Position numbers and translations under genes: made by a program. Shown piece after piece: positions 5,424 to 46,512 of a DNA stretch of 64,000 bases (positions are counted from its first letter, which is position 1; every line of letters begins with the position of its first letter). A model generated the notes under the pieces. The model was not told where the DNA came from. It was given only the letters and a program-made list of their open reading frames with translations, and did no database searches. Location: the IMG/VR virus record IMGVR_UViG_3300021400_000447, positions 17,403-81,402 of that record. One strand, 5' to 3'. The stretch comes from a virus (taxonomy: Duplodnaviria; Caudoviricetes).

Positions 5424-8400
5424 ATGGGTTATGTAAATAAAGTAGTAGATAATGTAGGAACTCATTTAGTAGAGCCAACATTATACACTGCTGCAGGCGG
5501 CACTGCTGCCGCGTACACTGCAGCGATCAGTACTTTTGAATTGGTAGAAGGCGTCATGATTAATTTAAAGATTCCGACTACCAATGCAGCATCTGCTACA
5601 TTAAGCATTAATAATACAACAGCGAAAAATATTTATTATAATAATGCAGCTATCGCGGAAAAAGTATTAAAAGCTAATCATATTTATAATTTAACATACG
5701 ACGGTACAAATTGGGTATTAGTTGGGGATTTAGATGCCGAAGTAAACATAACGAATACTTCATTGCCCTCATCTGGAAATAAGATTTATTATTTAACTTA
5801 TAGTGTAAGCACTACTACTGGTAATCAAAAATTAAATAACAGCGATAGACTATATTTATATGAAAATACAACAGATTCATATTTAGCTGTTGGCAGTGGC
5901 TCTACCAGTGGTGGCTTAACCATACGTAATAAAAATGGAAAATATATGAATATAGTTACATCTGCATTTAGTGACAATTAGACTTTAACATTACCAGATA
6001 AAACTGGTATTATTGCATTAACAGGTGATATACCAACTAAAGTAAGCCAATTAACTAATGATTCTGGATATGTAAAATCTTCTGGTGTTACATCCATTAC
6101 ATTAAAAGCGGGCGCCGGTATAACATTAGATACAGATAATACAGCAATTACAAATACTGGGGAACGTACCATTAGTATAAGTGGATTAAATACTTCATCT
6201 GGTTCCACTACAAAATGGCTTAATTAGAAAGGAGGATGGAGCACGCCAACAGCGGCGTAGGTTGGCGCAGCTCCTGCAGTTACTGGCGGTTATTTACCAT
6301 TAAGTGGCGGAGCAATGACGGGCAATATTCGCCGTTATTATGATGCTGCAAGTACTGAACCTATGATTACTATGCTTTCTAATAATTTGGATATCATTTT
6401 ATGGGAAGCAGGACATGGCGCTGCCGCCGCGGCAACAACTACATCTAATCATTATAAATTATTATATAAAGGGACAGGCTATACTGGAAATAATGAGAAT
6501 TATTTATAGCTAATTGCACATAAATCTGATGATAACATTGCAGTTCAAATAGATGAGGCAGGTAAAATTATTTTGCCACAGATGGCTACTGGCGCTGTAG
6601 ACACACCAATTTATATTAATAGTGATGGTGTGATTACTGCTGGCACTAAATTAGGAGCAAGCGCTTATCATGCTGACTCTTATTTTGCATTAGCGTCTCA
6701 TGGTACGCATGTTACTGCTGCAACAGTTAAATCAGCTTTAGGAACGGTTACTACAACCGCAAAAAAATTCTTAAAAGATACTGGCGCATGGGCATAGGTT
6801 AATTGGAGTGATTTGAGTGGTGTGCCAGATACGTTTACGCCTGAAACACATACGCATAATTCTGATAATACTTTAATGCATGGATATACACGTTCATAGA
6901 TTGGCACATCGCCAAATTATGATAATCCATAGTATGATGGCAAAAAAATTAATGGTATTTATGAAATACGCAAAGCTTCTGAAGTGAGCGGGCAAACTGG
7001 CACAAGACCGCCAGCCGCCGATTATTATCCAATGTTAAGCTTGCAAACAGAAAACGTAATGATGTAGCTTGGCGGTAGTAACTCATAGGGTTGGTTTATT
7101 CGTGGAAAATAGGCAGCAAATGTTACACTTGCAAATGTTGATTGGCAACAATTAATAACAGATGCAAATTATAAATCTTATGCATGGGCGCGTCCATCAT
7201 CCATTGCATCTGGTTAGATATTAGTAAGTAATGGAGCTGCAGGAGAAACTACATTACGCGGTATATATACCTTAAGTACGACTGATGACACTGGATGGAG
7301 CACAACGGCAAATAGAACTAAAATTCCAGACATGAGTTTTATGGCATATTGGAATGGCGCGTATAATGGTACTAGCAGTAATTTATCAGTTCTTGGTACA
7401 ATTACTACTGGTACTTGGAACGCTTCTGTAATTGAATCAGCTTACATAGATACAGCGATAGCACGACTTGCATCTCCAGCTTTCACAGGTACTCCGACAG
7501 CGCCCACCGCGGAAGATGGTACTAATAACACTCAAATTGCTACTACAGCTTTTGTTATGAATGCTTTTAAAACAAATGATGCAATGCTCTATAAAGGAGT
7601 AATAAATGCTGATTCTGATTTACCAACTACACATTATCAAGGATGGACTTACAAGATAGGCACGGCGGGAAAGTATGCTGGTATTTAGTGTGAAGTCGGT
7701 GATATGATTATATGTAATACCGATGGTACAACTGCGAATAATGCTCATTGGAATATCATTCAAACCAATATTGATGGAGCAGTTACAAGCTCTTCCGATA
7801 GCTCAACAGACAATGCATTGGCTGTATGGAGCGGCACTAGCGGAAGAATTATTAAAAATCAATCATATGTCACATATTTAAATCATAGTCAGATTACAGG
7901 TAAAAACTTTTATTAGGATGGTTTATTAATAAATGGTGTCACCGAAAACGGAACACCTGTATTTGGAGATGCAGGCCCATAGCTACAGTTTAATGATAGC
8001 GGTCAGCAAGGTAGCATTATATTTACTAGATTTGATAACGGATTTGCTAATTCTGCGTCATGGCATTTTGTTGCAAATCAATCATCTGGCACTAATGTTA
8101 CATCAACCGGTTTTACTGCGAAAACATATTTAACTATTGGACAAAATGCATTGGATACAGATTATAATTTATCCGTGACAGGAACAACAAAACTTAGTGG
8201 AAATGTTAATGTAATAAGTAATACTCCAAGAATATTATTTAAAGAAATGGATGCAGATAAATCAGTCGCGCCATCAAGTGCTACACAATAGGGTATATTT
8301 TTTACTGACCAAAATGGTGCAACACTTGGCCTATTGGATTAGCGTATTTATTCTGAGTCAAATCGTATGGAATATTTAGTGCTTGAACCAAATAATAACA

Positions 8401-10352
8401 CTAACGTTTACCATGGCTTGCGTCTTTACGCGCCGTTCCCTGTAAACAATACACGCACATCAGCTTACGCAGAATTTGATGCTGGGTCGTATCTCAAATT
8501 AAACAACGATACAGACGCAACAGCAGCAGATACTGGCGCATTACGTGTGTTGGGTGGCGCAAGCATATCCAAATCATTGTATGCTAAACTTGGTATATTT
8601 GACGCAATTTAGAATTATGTCATCGTAGATCGTACATCCACAACAATGACTGCTGGCGAACCATATACAGTCTTTTAGGCAAAATATAAAAACACAACTG
8701 GCGATGGTACTGCAACAATTAGTGCAATACGTGTTATTGGCACAGATGAAGCCGCAACAAGCTCTGGCGCGTTAAATAATGGATGTGTTTTAATTGGTAG
8801 CGGTACTGGTTGTGTATGGTTCTCCGCTGGTGAGAGTAGTTCTGCGTTCCCGAAAGTAGTTAGTTATAATGATGAGAACGCATATATTAGCGCAGACGCA
8901 CATATTGAATTTTATTCTAGCAATAGTACGAATGCGGCCAACTTATCTACCGATAATATAAGACATATCGCGCACTTTGACAAGACAGGCACAACTACAT
9001 TCTATAATAACATGACACTAGAAGCTGGTAGTATAACAGCAAATGCAGGTAATATTTTTTCTGGGACCGACAGCGCAAATGTGGAACGTGACGTTGGAGT
9101 TAAAACAACAGGCGGCGATTTGTATCTATACTCTACGCCAGCAGGCAATCGCGGTTTATATACTCACGCGCACGGTACTGGTGCGGCGAAAAATATTATA
9201 TCAATAGATACAAATAACAATGCTACTTTTGCTGGTCATAGTTCATTAGATATACCAATTAACTGGACAATTAGCAATGTAACACGCGGCATGGCAAATC
9301 CCTCTTCCGACCTGTGGTATGGCGGCCGCACATTAATAGATTCGTCTGGTTTAACTGGCGATTTAACAAAACGTCTATATCGCGAAGAAGCATTAATAGA
9401 AACAAATGGAAATAACAGTTATTTTTTCCGCACTTACAACAACGCCGGCACGACAGCCGAACACGTTTATTTACGTCTACTTGCAGGCCCAGCGTCTACA
9501 GGAATTAATAAACAAATAATAACAAATTCCGACTTCATAAGAGTAAATTCTGATACAGATCGTAATCTTGGTAGAGAGTTCAGAGCTACACGTGGAACTC
9601 GTTCTATTGAATTTGGATTTGGAACTGCCGGTGTTAATCGTGGTATTTATGATACAACATTAGCATAGTGGGTGTTTTATTCAGATGATTCAAATACTTA
9701 TTTAAGAACAGTATTACCTCTCGCAACAGAAACACAAGACTTAGGATCTGCGACTTACAAATGGCAAAATCTTTATACCAAAGGCATCTAGGCAGATACA
9801 ATTACAATTACAGACACAAACGCAGTTAGACACTTGAGGTTCTCACGTACAGGTTGGAACTATATTACTGCACCGAAAGGTGGCAGCCTTGCTTTTAGTG
9901 TAGGAGATTTCGCTGGCACTGGCACATGTCCACTATTAATTACTGGCACAATAAATGACAGCAATCAACTTACAGCTGGCGCACTATTTGCAGGATTGAC
10001 TAGTGTAGTTGATTTGGGTAGAAATACTAATTACTTCAAAACAGCATATATTAACACAGTTTCTGCATATGAATTATTATATTTAAATTCTGGTTCAAAT
10101 ACTAAAGCAATAGTATTCTAGCAAGGCGGTACTGAGCGTGCACGAATCAATACCAAAGGCCATCTACAAGTCAATACAAAAGTAGCACAAGATGCATTTG
10201 GTATTTTAGCTAACGATGCTATTGGTACAACTTCTCGCTATAGCTTTACATCTATACCTGTTAATGACGACGCAACAGCGCAAACAGTAAATGAGCACGC
10301 ATATATGCAATACAACACTGCTGATGATAGTATAGACTTTATTTTTAATTAA
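5424..10352 (+). CDS. Large tail fibre protein, about 1642 aa
   Basis: Eight track ORFs lie in the same frame separated only by TAG (21 counted); first TAA at 10350-10352; SPAFTGTPTAPT motif. Confidence 0.8.
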
Positions 10353-19945: not shown

Positions 19946-19958
19946 AAATATAGACAGT

Positions 19959-20044
19959 GGGGAGGTACCCAAGTGGCCGAAGGGAGCGACCTACTAAGTC
20001 GCCAGCGCCTCACGGCGGCGTGGGTTCGAATCCCACCCTCCCCG
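19959..20044 (+). tRNA. tRNA-Ser, unusual anticodon ACT
   Basis: Acceptor GGGGAGG/CCTCCCC; anticodon arm GCGAC-CT ACT AA-GTCGC; long variable arm; G73. Confidence 0.85.
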
Positions 20045-20066
20045 TTGAAAAGAAAGGAGCCATACT

Positions 20067-21800: not shown

Positions 21801-21877
21801 CGGAACTTAACTCAGTTGGTTAGAGTGGCGGTCTTATAAACCGCAAGTCCTGGGTTCAAGTCCCAGAGTTCCGACCA
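21801..21877 (+). tRNA. tRNA-Ile, anticodon TAT (reads AUA)
   Basis: CGGAACT/AGTTCCG acceptor; GCGGT-CT TAT AA-ACCGC; encoded CCA. Confidence 0.9.
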
Positions 21878-22457: not shown

Positions 22458-22712
22458 TGGGCTTGGGATAACTTTGGACACAGCTTATCCTGCCTAAAAT
22501 TAACAGGTGTTACAGAGCCACCTTTAAAGCCCTGGCTTCTGGGCGCAATCCCAAAAATCTACGACCGTTAACACGGATTTAGCACTTCAACTACCACCGG
22601 CACGAAATCCGCCGCGAAAGCGAACGAGTATGCTTGGTTTAACAAGCGGGCGGCTCAGTAGTGATATGTGGCTTAGCGGAAAACGGTATATAAAGAAGCG
22701 AAGTAAAGTGCA
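22458..22712 (+). ncRNA. Structured leader/ncRNA upstream of the suppressor tRNA
   Basis: Hairpins GGATAA/TTATCC, CGGATTT/AAATCCG, GCCC/GGGC; no ORF. Confidence 0.4.
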
Positions 22713-22717
22713 ATTGT

Positions 22718-22982
22718 AGCCCCTTAGTTCAACGGTAGAACACCGGTCTCTAGTCTTAATTTGGAGCTTCATATGGGGACATATGAATGAAAACGCCGCT
22801 AATTCGGAGAAAGCTTAACTGCCAACCCCGAGCAAGGAGAAATCCGTGTGTAGAGACTTTACACGGCGCATCTAGAACAGATGAAGATAAAGTCCGGACC
22901 ACAATGCAAAAGCAATGCGTGTGAAGAAAACCGTTATATCCCTCTGAAGGAGGTAGTCTGGGTTCGAATCCCAGAGGGGCCA
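22718..22982 (+). tRNA. Amber suppressor tRNA (anticodon CTA) interrupted by a group I intron; exons 22718-22751 and 22927-22982
   Basis: Joined exons give AGCCCCT-TA-GTTC AACGGTA GAAC-A-CCGGT CT CT|A AA ACCGT-23 nt arm-CTGGG TTCGAAT CCCAG-AGGGGCC-A. Mismatches at 1:72 and 27:43. Confidence 0.85.
22752..22926 (+). mobile_element. Compact group I intron (IC-type core, 175 nt, no ORF)
   Basis: P1 CTCT|AG/TTGGAG with U.G at the splice site; P2 TTCATATG-GGGA-CATATGAA; P3 CGCCG/CGGCG; AATTCGGAGAAA..CAACCCCGAGC (P4-P6); AGAGACT and AAGATAAAGTC (P7); P8 CATCT/AGATG; terminal G. Confidence 0.85.
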
Positions 22983-23035
22983 CAATATTGACTTTTCTTA
23001 CAAAATATACTATAATATATTTGTAAGAAAAATTT

Positions 23036-23106
23036 GGGGGATTCGCTAATCGGATTAGCACGCGGCTGTTAACCGCGCTAGAGAGGTTCAACTCCTCTAT
23101 CCCCCG
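23036..23106 (+). tRNA. tRNA-Asn(GTT)
   Basis: GGGGGAT/ATCCCCC; CGCGG-CT GTT AA-CCGCG; promoter at 22988-23016. Confidence 0.88.
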
Positions 23107-23704: not shown

Positions 23705-24060
23705 ACCCAAGTAAAACGGGAATTGACTCGTTATAACCAGCCAATTTTAATTGGCGGCCTGATGAACGTTCGACTCGTTCGTTGCTTAAGTCGGTCTGAG
23801 GGCGGAACTGGCATCCGCCGCCTAAATGGAGATACAGGATTGTCACCCTGTCTACTTAAGCAAGTAGTTTAATGGCTAAAACCGTAGGCGACGTGGCGCG
23901 GACACTGGTTTGGGTGAGGTTTCTGCTATGACCAAAAAGACATAAAATATAGCAGCAATGTGTGCTTATGACGGTATTGTTACGTTGCGGAGCAATACTT
24001 GAGGCTTCATAGCAGTTAGCGTTAATCTGTGCGCAACAGTTAAAAAACGCATTTTGTGTT
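23705..24060 (+). ncRNA. Candidate structured non-coding RNA of about 350 nt
   Basis: TTGCTTAAGT 23782-23791 pairs with ACTTAAGCAA 23854-23863, enclosing hairpins GGCGGA/TCCGCC and ACAGG/CCTGT. Confidence 0.45.
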
Positions 24061-31765: not shown

Positions 31766-32361
31766 AGGAGCATTTTCCTTAATAAATGATTGACCCAAGT
31801 GCAGATGTGCCAACCACACTGCTTGGGCTATCTGAATAACAGCCATACGTTACGGCCCGGGATACTAGGCACACGCGGCCGCCGAAACAGCAATGCTAGG
31901 CGATAGGAAGAAACTTCTAATGTTAAGGATAGGCGCTTAAATATTCGCAATCAAAAGTATTATTCCTCTTGGCCACATAATAGAAAGCTCATTGAATAGG
32001 TGAGCCGAATCCAGATAAGGTGGTAGCTGGTAACTGCTGCAAACTCTGGAATTACCATAAGTGGCTAATGTCGATGAAAGCCAGAAATGGCATATAAAAG
32101 AGGTTTAAAGTAAAAGTAGGCCAATACGACATTAATTGTATGTTAACACATAAGCAAGTATGCTTAATATGATTATTGCTGAATGGTTTGGCTGAAATTT
32201 CAGGGTAAGCAATCCCTGCTATACATGGCTGTAAAGCGGGTTAAGAAAGTTACGGGGTAGCTCCTTGTGGCTCAGCTCTTAATTCTATAGTGACTGAATA
32301 TGATTGAAGAATATTATAAGTATGGCGAAGGCTGCAATCATTTGTTAAGGAAAATGCTCCT
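31766..32361 (+). ncRNA. Large (~596 nt) ornate non-coding RNA, ROOL/GOLLD-class candidate
   Basis: 27-bp terminal helix 31766-31792 with 32335-32361 (one G.U); many internal stems; own promoter; no ORF. Confidence 0.75.
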
Positions 32362-38219: not shown

Positions 38220-38636
38220 ATGAAGATTTTTTTGAGTTTACTTTTTACTATTATGCTTTTATTTAATTTTTCTGCCGCGGAAGCGCCGTCTCCAGATGCA
38301 GAAACACTTGTGCGGTTTATCCCAGATTTATACTTTACATCAATTTATGCGCTTGAAGATGATCCATGGGTGTTAATTAATGAGTTTTCTGAAGAAGATA
38401 GCACCATGTTTGTTGTTGATGAAGCGCTTGAAGTGCAATTGGATGAAGAGCTAGATGAAGTTACAATGTTTTGTACTAGATATTACAATGCCGAAGATAG
38501 CATCTTTGTAATCTGGCACAATGATAGTAATACTATTATTATATCTCCTGATGTAATTGATGGTTGTTTACTATTGGACATGCATGAAATTTAGCCAAGC
38601 GTATATCGTGTTTATGTAATGTTTATGGAGCCGTGA
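38220..38636 (+). CDS. Hypothetical exported acidic protein
   Basis: Signal-peptide-like N-terminus; 3' end ambiguous (TAG 38592 or TGA 38634). Confidence 0.5.
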
Positions 38637-38649
38637 GGCTCTTTTTTTT
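38628..38649 (+). terminator. Intrinsic terminator
   Basis: GAGCC-GTGA-GGCTC followed by a T run. Confidence 0.75.
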
Positions 38650-38680
38650 ATTGTATCAATAGGTATTGGAGGCTATTTTA

Positions 38681-41182
38681 ATGAGAAAAAAAGCAATAAA
38701 AAGCTCATCAACAAGCTCAAAAAAAAGAACAGCCAACATGGGTAGTGGAGCATCATCTGTCTAGCCAGCAATACCCGGGATAAATTTGCCTGCATTTAAG
38801 TTAAATGATTTATTTGTATATTTTTCAGATTTATAGAGAAATACAGGTTAGAAAGACTGGGTAGCGTAGCGTCACGCATTGTACAAGGCTGCATCAGGTA
38901 CATTCAAAACTGGTATAACAGCTATTTCAGTGATGAGTAATAAAAATGAAGGAGGCCGGCGATATGGCGGCAACCAATTAATATAGGCAATTGAACTCCT
39001 TAAAACTCTCGCGCAGTCTGAGCAAGCAAAAGAAATGGCGGCAATACGATCATATGTAGATCATAAAAGACAAATAATGCATGAAATGGATCGAATGGGA
39101 ATACAATTTCCAGGCATAAAAATGGATAAATTAACTATTACAAATGGTCTTGGAACTTATACGTCTAATTATGGAGACATAACTTCACAAGAATTCTACA
39201 AATTCTATGTGCAAGAGATACAATGGTTAGCAAGAATAAATGCGATTAATAAAGATGCATTAAAAAAATTAATAGACGCACGAAATAGATTAGAATCAAT
39301 TTAGTATAGAGAAACAAAAGGAAAAGAACGCAGACAACTATGGGAATACACAAGAGATACTGCAGAAATGGCGGTCTCAAGAGAATATTTAGAACCATTT
39401 TTAAATAATTTATTACAAACCAACAAACAAAAAGGATATAAAGGTGATTAGACGATAGATGCAAGTTTTTAGACGATAGTCTAGGAAGCTGTTATGAAAG
39501 TCATGACATCATCTCAAGTTGTATCAAATTTAGTCGCTAGATTTCTTACAACGAGCAACGGTTTTAATGGTTCTTCATAGCAAGATTTTGTTGCTCTAGC
39601 CAGTGCGCTTTTAGGTGATATAGTAAAACAAGTAGAAATGCATTTATTACAATCATTGGGGCGGAACGGCCAAAGAACTGGAATGAATTACTTTACTGAC
39701 ATTCATGGAGTAGAGGGAAGAGAAGCTGTATTTGATCTTGTTGAAGAGTATATTAAGAAAATAGACAAAGGCGCAGCGTATGATGATTTTGACTCCAGTT
39801 TTTAGAGGGCATTAAGTTATTCTGCTTCCGATTATGATACAATCCGTGCTCAAGGAGTCCAGCAATTGCAAGAAGACTTAGCATCGTGGGCATCTGCTAT
39901 TGGAATTGAAACACCAGCTCTATAGAAAACATTGAAAGAAATTTTGGTACAAGATAAAGTAAAATTACGAAAAGAAGAAACAATTCGCAGAAAGACTGAT
40001 AAGTTAGTAGAGCAAATGAGAGATGATTTATACAGTATTATGATATCGGAAAAAGGCTTTAAATCTTTTAGCAGCCGTCAAATGAGAGCTGCAATTCAGC
40101 GATGGGGAAAAAGTATAAAATTTAAATTTAACCCTAACAATGCCCGCCAAGGCTCAATAAATGAAGCAATGTAGCAAATTTTGGTAGGTGGTATACGACG
40201 TGCAGGTCTTATCGGCACTGATAGAACGTATGTAGTGGGAGAATTTAATATAGAATTTTTGAATCCAATAGAATCTCTCAGCGATCCAAAACAATCTACA
40301 TCTAAACTGTATAAAGCACTTCAAGATTATGGTAGAGAATTAGCAAAAATTAGAGACGACGCGTCTGGCCGAGAAAATCTTACACAGAGATATAACGACG
40401 CAAAAAAACAATTAGATCAAGCAATAAATTTAATACAAAAATTTCTGTAGGAGCATAATGAACAGGTATTTATTGTGCATAGCAGCGATAAATTATCTGT
40501 AAATGCAGAAACTGGCGGTGTTATTGGACAAAAAGGATTCCAAGGAACAGAGTTTACAGGTTTTAGAGCCTTAGATCAATTGAACGCAGGTTTAAATCAT
40601 CTCGATGTATCAGCGCCCGGTGCGACAATAAATATTGATATAATTAAATTTTTATTATTAAACATGTCTAGTAATGCATTGGGTGGCGGTAATGAAGATG
40701 CAATAAAAGATAGATTAATACAATATTTATCTGCGTTTGGTGCTATCTTAATGTTTGATGACATCGATCAAATGGTAATTGATCAAACAAAAACTGCGAA
40801 GGCAGTAACAAATTCTTTATCTACAATGTCAGGCGGTTTATATGCAATTCATATATTTACAATAAATGGTGTCTAGTTACCGCTATCATTAATACTATTT
40901 TAGCTCGCCAAGCAGTATGAAAATTTGATAGCAGGAGCTAAAAATGGTTTTGGAAACGACCCAACGGATACTGTTAAGGTAAAAATTAGTAGTGGAGTAG
41001 GTGGCGTTGTTAGTGCATGGGTATCTAAAGCGCAACAAGGCAGAATGACAAACACATCATATTATGATCCTGATGATTGGGCTAATGTGGCAAATGCCGC
41101 AACTAGTTCAATAAAATTAAATATTATCTTTTTACAAAATTTTACAAAACTAATTAAAAATTTAACAGACCAAATATAGTAA
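38681..41182 (+). CDS. Large unknown protein, about 833 aa, with about 17 TAG (probably late/virion)
   Basis: GGAGG RBS; track ORFs 39035, 39932, 40181, 40475 and 40925 share one frame; ends TAG-TAA. Confidence 0.75.
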
Positions 41183-44671: not shown

Positions 44672-45271
44672 ATGGAGTTTGAATTTCTAGAAATCCCAGA
44701 AAAATTCGGCCTAGACCCAGTATCATATCAATATTTTAATCAACTTTTAAATCATCGTACTATAATTTTTAATCAAGAAGTCACGAGTGATATTGTCGAG
44801 AGTATATATGTGCCTCTTAAACAATTTGAAGAAGATAATGATATGACACCAATAACAATGATTTTTAACAGCGTTGGTGGTTCAGTTACTGATGGATTTT
44901 TCCTAGCGCATTATTTAACCCACTATTCAAAGCCACTAACAATCATCGTTACTGGTCAAGCTTCGTCTATGGCCGCGATTTTACTAAGCGCAGGAGGAAA
45001 AAATCCAAACGTAACGCGCGTGTGTTATCCTAGCACATATGCACTTATTCATGATGGATATGTTGCCGTACCTGCTAGTGAAGCAAAAACTGCGGAAGAT
45101 ATAATGGCATTTAATCATCAAGTTGATTTACAAATCCGCGATTTTATTATTAATAACACAAATATTACAGCTGAATTATACGATTCCAAAACTAGGCGGC
45201 AATGGTTCTTAACAGCGCCAGAAATGAAGGAATTAAATTTAATTGATAAAATTATCGGATGTGATGATTAA
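44672..45271 (+). CDS. clpP: ClpP-like protease subunit
   Basis: NSVGGSV.DG, GQASSMAAILL, LIH, WFLTAPE..L.LID.I. Confidence 0.8.
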   Translation: MEFEFLEIPEKFGLDPVSYQYFNQLLNHRTIIFNQEVTSDIVESIYVPLKQFEEDNDMTPITMIFNSVGGSVTDGFFLAHYLTHYSKPLTIIVTGQASSMAAILLSAGGKNPNVTRVCYPSTYALIHDGYVAVPASEAKTAEDIMAFNHQVDLQIRDFIINNTNITAELYDSKTRRQWFLTAPEMKELNLIDKIIGCDD

Positions 45272-46512
45272 TGACTATGCATGTATTAGATACATCAGCA
45301 ATTCTAAATGGTGCGCTAAATGATTATAACACTTCTTGGATTTCACCATTGGTACTAGCTGAGTTGGAATAGATAAAAACTTCTGCGCATAAAGATAATA
45401 ATATCAAATTCCAAGCCCGTGCCGCAATACGGGCTATTATTAATGAAAAAAATATTAATTATATTATTGCGCCATAGAAAAAAATAGAAAAAATTATAAA
45501 GCAATATCAATTTCTATCTGACATCAATGATCATAAAATTTTAAGTGAAGCTTTTTGGATGGCCAAACGTACATGCGAGCCAGTAGAATTTATTACAAGC
45601 GATGGTGCACTATATGCAATCGCATGCCAGATGCCATATCTTTATCCGATATTATATAATCCGAATGTAACAGATACAACTGAATATTGTGGATGGGGAA
45701 AATATTATCCTAATGATAATACATTAACAATGTTATATGAGGATCCAAAAGTTAACACTTTAAAATGCAGAACAAACGAATATGCGCAAATCTTTTACGA
45801 AGATAAATTAAAAGACATCTTAGTATGGAATGGAAACGAATATAGAAAATTAAAATATAAAGACATGAAAAATCCATACATTGATGAAGTCCTAAAGCCA
45901 CGAAATCTAGAGCAGAAAATGGCGTTTGACCTCCTACAAAATCAGGACATTAAAGTAAAATTACTAACCTCCACTTGGGGCGGCGGAAAAACTTTAATGG
46001 CATTAACATATGCACTAGAATAGGTATATAAAGGAAGATATGCTAAATTAATTTTTGTACGCAATAATATAATTGTTGCAGGAACAAATGATATTGGTTT
46101 CTTGCCCGGCGACCTTAATGCAAAAATGAGTATTTGGGGTGGTCCTTTAGCAGACCACCTTGGCGGTCAAGAAGTGTTAGAGCAGCTTATTGAAGATAAT
46201 ACGATTGAAATTCTGCCATTATCACACATTCGCGGACGGTCAATTAGAAATTCAATTGTTATATGCGATGAGTGCGAAAACATGGACGACAAACTTGTTA
46301 CTTTATTAATGAGCCGTATTGAAGAGAATAGTGAATTGATTTTCTGCGGCGACGTTGCTCAAATTGATAGCCATCGTTTTGAGGAAAATAATGGTATTAG
46401 GTCTATGGTAAGTCATTTATCTGGTTAGCCTTTATTTGGTTTAGTTAAATTAATTAAATCAGAGCGTGGGCCTATAGCCGAATTATGTAATTTAATTCGA
46501 CCACCCGTTTAA
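45271..46512 (+). CDS. phoH: PhoH-family protein with N-terminal PIN domain (4 TAG)
   Basis: VLDTS PIN start; PRNLEQ, GGGKTLMA, IGFLPGD, HIRGRSI, DECEN, GD..QID. Confidence 0.85.

Follow-up and report, generated by a model that had tools for sequence, protein, structure and literature searches.

A conserved second hairpin resembling the glutamine anticodon loop in amber suppressor tRNAs of recoded phages

Phages that read the amber codon as an amino acid pose a question raised by Borges et al. (10.1101/2021.08.26.457843): how do stop-codon tRNAs obtain the right amino acid when host synthetases read the anticodon? We describe here a tRNA gene at positions 22718-22982 of a 64,000-nucleotide stretch (hereafter the window; coordinates without a contig name refer to it) of IMG/VR record IMGVR_UViG_3300021400_000447, an 81-kb phage record with a CheckV completeness of about 46%. 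Besides its CUA anticodon arm, this tRNA carries a second hairpin whose loop reads like a glutamine anticodon loop. The closest described systems are phAss-1 (OQ749652; PMC10607447) and the phages of Borges et al. (10.1101/2021.08.26.457843), which resemble the window in combining a CUA anticodon with in-frame TAG in late genes. Similarly, the tRNA-Sup(CUA) of code-15 phages comes with no phage aminoacyl-tRNA synthetase and is predicted to carry glutamine. Those reports annotated the genes and left the extra hairpin and its Gln loop unmentioned (PMC10607447; 10.1101/2021.08.26.457843). One of the annotated phAss-1 genes, the second tRNA-Sup-CTA, belongs to the two-hairpin family described below. 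Unlike the phAss-1-type genes, the window copy is split by an intron. A preceding sequence-only reading had called the arrangement undescribed, and full-text searches and papers on recoded phages or unusual tRNAs yielded no description of it, with subscription journals outside the coverage.

Other known systems resemble this tRNA in part. Escherichia coli su7 (supU) is a tRNA-Trp with the anticodon CUA that is charged with glutamine by glutaminyl-tRNA synthetase (GlnRS) (PMC9976931). Like the window tRNA, it has a weak 1-72 pair and an anticodon arm of Trp type in which U replaces C35, and the outcome is again glutamine; however, su7 has a normal 5-nt variable loop and its charging is mixed, whereas the window family adds a second loop that appears to decide the amino acid. 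Class II tRNAs, such as tRNA-Ser and tRNA-Sec with seryl-tRNA synthetase (SerRS), also have a recognition arm between the anticodon and T arms that does not serve decoding. SerRS reads the shape and orientation of the long variable arm, not its sequence (PMC7609411), whereas the window family has a class I-like D arm and conserves the loop of the extra arm at the sequence level, as that of an anticodon loop. Synthetase-binding anticodon mimics come closest in what is copied, as their hairpins reproduce the cognate anticodon loop; examples are the tyrosine tRNA-like structure of brome mosaic virus (BMV TLS-Tyr; PMC11791061), the human immunodeficiency virus type 1 tRNA-like element bound by LysRS (HIV-1 TLE; PMC5113203), and mRNA operators. 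The BMV TLS-Tyr mimic sits at an unexpected site and needs a conformational change (PMC11791061). Such mimics are not decoding tRNAs, whereas here the mimic would lie inside a working tRNA beside a different, real anticodon.

Between the CUA arm and the T arm, 23 nt with a 7-bp stem (one A·G, one U·G) and the loop CUCUGAA had been reported, and direct reading of the sequence agreed exactly. The pairs are T22935-A22955, A22936-T22954, T22937·G22953, A22938·G22952, T22939-A22951, C22940-G22950, and C22941-G22949, and the loop CU-CUG-AA (22942-22948) presents CUG, a Gln anticodon, with an A after it. The region 22600-23070, with the intron and the hairpin, is also covered by an independent 1623-nt contig that comes from another study and is identical to the window at 22935-22957. 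Deletion of the CUA arm together with the intron leaves a molecule of normal size (73 nt), as had been proposed, but not a canonical cloverleaf: with a 7-bp stem only 2 nt remain for the variable loop, and with a 5-bp stem position 26 is taken up by 3 nt.

Relatives were sought by scanning IMG/VR and GTDB with patterns that fixed the CUA loop and the T loop and left the intervening region free, followed by an ARAGORN filter and parsing. The scans returned 41 distinct class I-bodied phage tRNA(CUA) with a long extra region. In all 41, the second hairpin loop contained Y-U-G, that is, CUG or UUG, both of which are Gln anticodons, and in 40 of them an A followed. The loop CTCTGAA occurred in 21 of the 41, TTCTGAG in 8, CTTTGAA in 3, and CTCTGAC and CCCTGAA in 2 each, single variants making up the rest. 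Among 30 distinct hairpins, the three loop-proximal stem positions were paired in 30, 30, and 22, with four to five pair types each (CG, GC, AU, UA, and UG), and the U and G of the loop were invariant. The covariation score of the stem was 0.496, compared with 0.19 in shuffles (0/500 reached the observed value) and at most 0.195 in slid controls. The stem core therefore changes by compensatory substitutions in homologues. The outer pairs of the window's 7-bp stem showed no conservation. The window tRNA has the three features that define the family: a loop N-N-Y-U-G-A-N, the covarying stem, and 2-6 nt before the T arm. An alternative register (5 bp closing a GAA triloop), which is the minimum free energy fold of the window-type sequence, was rejected, having no covariation support. 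On this comparative evidence, we regard the second hairpin as a true, conserved, and selected copy of the tRNA-Gln anticodon loop. It is conserved less strictly than a decoding anticodon loop would be, because the equivalent of U33 is C or G in 6/30 hairpins, a position at which decoding tRNAs as a rule have U.

Ordinary class II tRNA(CUA) came up in these scans as well; their D arms differ and they lack the YUGA loop. The variable region of the window tRNA is, as in class II, a stem-loop of more than 10 nt (23 nt, 22935-22957), but its D arm (Table 1) is unlike their GGCAGAGCGG-type D arms, and TAG falls opposite residues other than Ser, Leu, or Tyr. Class II-type tRNA(CUA) with very long variable arms were observed on contigs of Vicinamibacterales metagenome-assembled genomes (MAGs; L050, L052, and L056, up to 5.8 Mb). 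An intronless homologue of the window tRNA is present in GenBank phage Phass-1, where it is annotated only as tRNA-Sup-CTA. Phass-1 and its relatives carry two amber suppressors in tandem (L001, 1389-1463 and 1467-1557), one a short class I form (U1·C72, G73) and one a two-hairpin form.

The meaning of TAG was read from the window's own genes. TAG is the sole interruption of long genes, with 21 in-frame TAGs in 5424-10352 and 18 in 38633-41182, and the tRNA at 22718-22982 is the only tRNA(CUA) of the window phage. In a PhoH-like gene (45271-46512), the TAG at residue 251 stood opposite Q in 106/119 homologues and the remaining three TAGs opposite N/Q, D/E/Q/N, and H/N; the counterparts of TAG in this alignment were Q, N, H, D, or E, and never S, L, or Y. 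Furthermore, all five Trp of the window's GIY-YIG gene are encoded by TGG, and a TAG falls within its YIG-Q-T motif; a comparison of this protein with I-TevI gave no sequence match. These alignments identify TAG as a Gln codon in the window phage, which thus combines a CUA anticodon with in-frame TAG read as Gln, as in code 15.

Tryptophan counterparts were found by a scan for the anticodon UCA with a CUCCAAA second loop, which returned 20 distinct phage tRNA(UCA) with tRNA-Trp-like bodies (A1-U72, G73; examples in L262-L286, such as L269 740-835). Their second hairpin reproduces the tRNA-Trp anticodon arm; its 5-bp stem was 98.6% paired and had a covariation score of 0.734, compared with 0.21 in shuffles. 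A metagenome scan further yielded CUA tRNAs with the Trp-type CUCCAAA second hairpin (L515, L520, L522, and L475). This design, a CUA tRNA with a CCA second loop, came from the metagenome scan only; the corresponding IMG/VR scans gave ordinary tRNA-Trp genes and chance matches, which were discarded. On the L515 phage contig, the tRNA(CUA) with the Trp-type hairpin (5673-5767, minus strand) has beside it a GIY-YIG endonuclease gene (6705-7517, minus strand) with six in-frame TAG and zero TGG, and TAG36 and TAG87 align with both Trp of I-TevI. This phage contig appears to read TAG as tryptophan, each of the six Trp positions in that gene being TAG. With one and the same CUA anticodon, the second loop is, by these alignments, YUG if TAG means Gln and CCA if it means Trp, and for this reason we judge that it follows the amino acid and not the stop codon. 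No UCA tRNA with a Gln-type YUGA loop was present among the 118 matches listed. Totals of stop-free frames in short tRNA-rich loci, compared by code (1.51 versus 1.42 and 1.40 versus 1.23), were too weak to assign codes. In L270 (6922-8622), the expected sequence of a GyrB/topoisomerase-like frame is lost soon after ...NRMKGL, and an interruption by an intron, intein, or frameshift is suggested. The metagenome contigs from the scan (L405-L524) also hold more than 100 copies of a repeat, ATGACATCCTCCCCG-CTCTAAA-GAGCGGGG..., with up to three copies per contig spaced about 1 kb or more apart (e.g., L408 2198-2251, 3281-3334, and 5103-5156).

The identity elements of E. coli GlnRS are the 1-72 and 3-70 pairs, the discriminator, the 10-25 pair, U35, and G36, and an amber tRNA-Trp is charged with Gln (PMC9976931). 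The real anticodon CUA of the window tRNA has U35 and lacks G36, and Y-U-G is present only in the second loop. Set against the E. coli elements, from which the rules of the host may differ, A1·C72, G2-C71, and G10-C25 fit, whereas C3-G70 and A73 do not. Across the family, the 1-72 position is A·C, U·U, U·C, U·G, U-A, or A-U and never G-C; G2 is present in all members, and G10 is usual. G73 is present in 35/40 tabulated members (L024 was left out of the table), and the relatives mostly end in G73-CCA; A73 occurs in the window, L020, L130, L141, and L134, and U73 in L113. A search of five phage records, of which three are complete, revealed no GlnRS-like gene. Family members were binned with Bacillota MAGs, which suggests Clostridia-type hosts. 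In the order of one candidate host bin, GlnRS scored above the family cut-off in 25/41 genomes, and the tRNA-Gln genes have U1-A72, G73, and the loop CUUUGAC in 30/31 cases. The second loop matches that host loop at 6 of 7 bases.

We consider it rather likely that the second hairpin is a spare cognate anticodon loop, by which the host GlnRS (or TrpRS) would accept the tRNA even though an identity base has been lost from its true anticodon. For a host GlnRS dependent on U35 and G36, a CUA tRNA would be a poor or ambiguous substrate. The spare loop would then present the cognate bases to the anticodon-binding domain of the synthetase, replacing G36 for GlnRS and C35 or C34 for TrpRS; the second loop would fix the amino acid, and the CUA arm would decode on the ribosome. 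Of the three ideas offered by the sequence-only reading, an identity signal is the one that held up best, since the second loop goes with whichever amino acid the stop codon has been given; reading of CAG by the second arm is unlikely in the Gln family.

Several points weigh against a spare cognate loop. GlnRS is a monomeric class I enzyme that approaches the tRNA from the side away from the variable region, so that in a canonical L-shaped tRNA its anticodon pocket should be out of reach for a loop in the variable arm. Only three pairs of the second stem are conserved, which is short for a stand-in anticodon arm, and loop position 38 is A or G in the hairpin and C in the host tRNA-Gln. The window copy has A73 and no encoded CCA, unlike most of its relatives. 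Furthermore, the hosts were inferred from MAG bins only, and the Q tally at residue 251 (106/119) may include homologues that are themselves from recoded phages. In the UCA family, where TGA would mean Trp, a GyrB-like frame has TGAs only at its end, and of seven TGAs at Trp-like spots of a lysin, one is opposite Phe in the only solved match.

The layout of the family bears on how such a loop might be used. The D stem is followed by N26, hairpin 1, a short linker, hairpin 2, a 4-5-nt loop whose last base is U, and the T arm; each hairpin thus has one canonical junction, namely, N26 before hairpin 1 and the 4-5-nt loop after hairpin 2. Because this last linker has the length and the terminal U of the variable loop of phage tRNA-Trp genes, either hairpin could take the anticodon position, and it is conceivable that the arms swap, with hairpin 2 stacked beneath the D stem while the tRNA is being charged. 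We add, tentatively and as a possibility to which we give rather low odds, that two tandem anticodon arms separate identity from decoding: the arm under the D stem would switch, the synthetase reading the cognate arm in the normal position and the ribosome the stop-codon arm. If true, tandem-arm switching would be a general phage device by which any chosen amino acid could be assigned to a stop codon through unmodified host enzymes.

As to origin, the layout fits both an amber arm inserted after the D arm and a second arm inserted into the variable loop. The proposal of a tRNA-Gln(CUG) body was not supported: the CUA arm CCGGT-CUCUAAA-ACCGT is the arm of a phage tRNA-Trp (CCGGT-CUCCAAA-ACCGG in L018) with C35 changed to U and position 43 changed. 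In a crude comparison of bodies with phage tRNAs, the nearest isotype was Trp for several family members and Gln for others, and the window was ambiguous. Nor is the window tRNA of the su7 type, a tRNA-Trp with only C35 changed to U, since its acceptor stem, discriminator, and 23-nt extra arm differ.

Conservation of the loop as a sequence would also suit any RNA or protein partner that recognizes anticodon loops of the Gln or Trp type. The hairpin might accordingly serve as a handle for a different partner, for example, a protein of the phage, an enzyme of tRNA modification, GatCAB or nondiscriminating GluRS (ND-GluRS) of the indirect pathway, a T-box leader, or an anticodon nuclease for which it would be a decoy; we hold this to be unlikely, though not negligible. 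The weak 1-72 pair is a mark that GatCAB and GluRS2 use as well (PMC9976931), and GlnRS was not found in 16/41 sampled genomes of the candidate host order. However, C34-type loops dominate the family, whereas Bacillus subtilis GluRS mainly needs a modified U34 (PMC9976931); no conserved protein gene adjoins the tRNA, the neighbours differing among the window, Phass-1, and other loci; and a nuclease decoy would not be expected to track the meaning of the codon.

A two-headed decoder, in which either hairpin takes the anticodon position on the ribosome, would predict the match between loop and amino acid equally well. The tRNA would then read UAG plus CAG/CAA as Gln, or UGA/UAG plus UGG as Trp. 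The one canonical junction at each hairpin, as in phage tRNA-Trp genes, is in keeping with this, and in the Trp-type families hairpin 2 is a full anticodon arm of 5 bp and 7 nt. Nevertheless, we find such a decoder improbable: the Gln family keeps only three stem pairs, the U33 equivalent is relaxed in the hairpins counted above, and the hosts and several of these phages already have a tRNA-Gln.

A long variable arm is nothing unusual in a tRNA for Ser, Leu, or Tyr, and the two loops of the window are one base apart (CUCUAAA versus CUCUGAA), as a duplication would leave them. That the hairpin is just a long variable arm of the ordinary kind, or a neutral remnant left when the anticodon arm was duplicated in tandem, with no sequence-specific role in either case, is still harder to credit than a second decoder. 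Stems and tRNA bodies diverge around an unchanging loop; the D arm is of the class I type, whereas the class II tRNA(CUA) of these scans differ in the D arm and lack the YUGA loop; and TAG aligns with neither Ser nor Leu nor Tyr. Nothing spoke for a chimeric assembly or a sequencing artefact, and this reading was rejected because the arrangement recurs in the independent contig, in Phass-1, and in dozens of contigs from IMG/VR and MAGs.

A spare cognate anticodon loop would give a concrete, testable answer to the question of how recoded phages charge their suppressors and, if true, would be a new kind of tRNA identity element. The second loop would predict the amino acid of a recoded stop codon, which matters for annotation, as tRNA finders label these genes Pyl, Sup, or Undet (ARAGORN: tRNA-Pyl). 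It may also offer a natural template for suppressor tRNAs in genetic-code engineering, in which the anticodon could be changed without loss of charging.

The gene at 22718-22982 is overlooked by standard tRNA finders. With introns allowed, ARAGORN reported a single tRNA(cta) at 22718-22983 with a 175-nt intron at 22752-22926; the Rfam model RF00005 had no match over the gene because of the intron. The elements of a tRNA are nonetheless complete, with a 7-bp acceptor stem, a D arm with GG, a 7-nt anticodon loop, and a T arm with GTTCGAATC (Table 1). The acceptor stem has an A1·C72 mismatch, and position 27-43 of the CUA arm is a C·U mismatch.

Table 1. Parts of the split suppressor tRNA gene in the window
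Feature	Position	Strand	Basis or remark
5' exon	22718-22751	+	sequence; ARAGORN -i, intron after base 34; intronless relatives collinear
Acceptor 5' strand AGCCCCT	22718-22724	+	then U8 A9
D arm GTTC-AACGGTA-GAAC	22727-22741	+	then A26 at 22742
Anticodon stem CCGGT	22743-22747	+	then C32 U33 C34 U35 (22748-22751)
Putative group I-type intron, 175 nt, between anticodon bases 35 and 36	22752-22926	+	Rfam RF00028; ARAGORN i(35,175); intron-free joints
3' exon start: A36 A37 A38 completing loop CU-CUA-AA, then stem ACCGT (22930-22934)	22927-22934	+	
Second, anticodon-like hairpin (variable-arm position) TATATCC-CUCUGAA-GGAGGTA, then GU	22935-22957	+	conserved in relatives
T arm CTGGG-TTCGAAT-CCCAG	22958-22974	+	sequence; ARAGORN
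Acceptor 3' strand AGGGGCC, A73 (22982), then CAA instead of encoded CCA	22975-22985	+	sequence

The segment 22752-22926 is a putative group I-type intron and a side feature of the finding. Rfam RF00028 (group I intron) matched 22740-22919 over the full model length with 34.1 bits and an E value of 6.5e-7, below the gathering score of 50. The borders fit those of a group I intron, the 5' exon ending in U (U22751) and the intron in G (G22926), and the exon borders are fixed because contigs in two runs join 22751 directly and exactly to 22927. The segment thus lies below the RF00028 gathering score and has both the U/G borders and exact intronless alleles. The spliced form of the window tRNA equals the intronless genes of L004, L013, and L019, and L003 has a 176-nt intron at the same site. 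Splice sites at 22749/22919, as placed by the Rfam intron model, were dropped, since 22751/22926 restore the 7-nt loop and agree with ARAGORN, the exact joint, and the intronless alleles. An RNA-library contig with the intron-free joint was likewise rejected as evidence of splicing; it runs into the 3' flank of a relative (GCCAAAAC...), and we read it as an intronless relative rather than as a spliced product of the window gene. Bacterial group I introns in tRNA-Leu(UAA), tRNA-fMet, and other tRNAs are similarly small, lie in the anticodon loop, have U/G borders, and have intronless alleles; the putative window intron differs from them in scoring below the Rfam gathering score.

The suppressor gene lies in a large tRNA island within the window. 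The island also has tRNA-Ser(ACU) and tRNA-Ile(UAU) (19958-20045 and 21801-21877), whose anticodons are unusual for bacteria, and Rfam matches inside it include ROOL RNA (311.8 bits) and skipping-rope RNA (38.1 bits), at 31771-32353 and 23791-23858. A short element just upstream of the suppressor tRNA (22651-22713), which has no Rfam match, reached depths of up to about 1000 and of 79 in two metatranscriptome runs. It occurs with many different flanks, with copies in L037 (2356-2399), L065 (5740-5784), L030, L045, and L019, and may be part of a stable small RNA.
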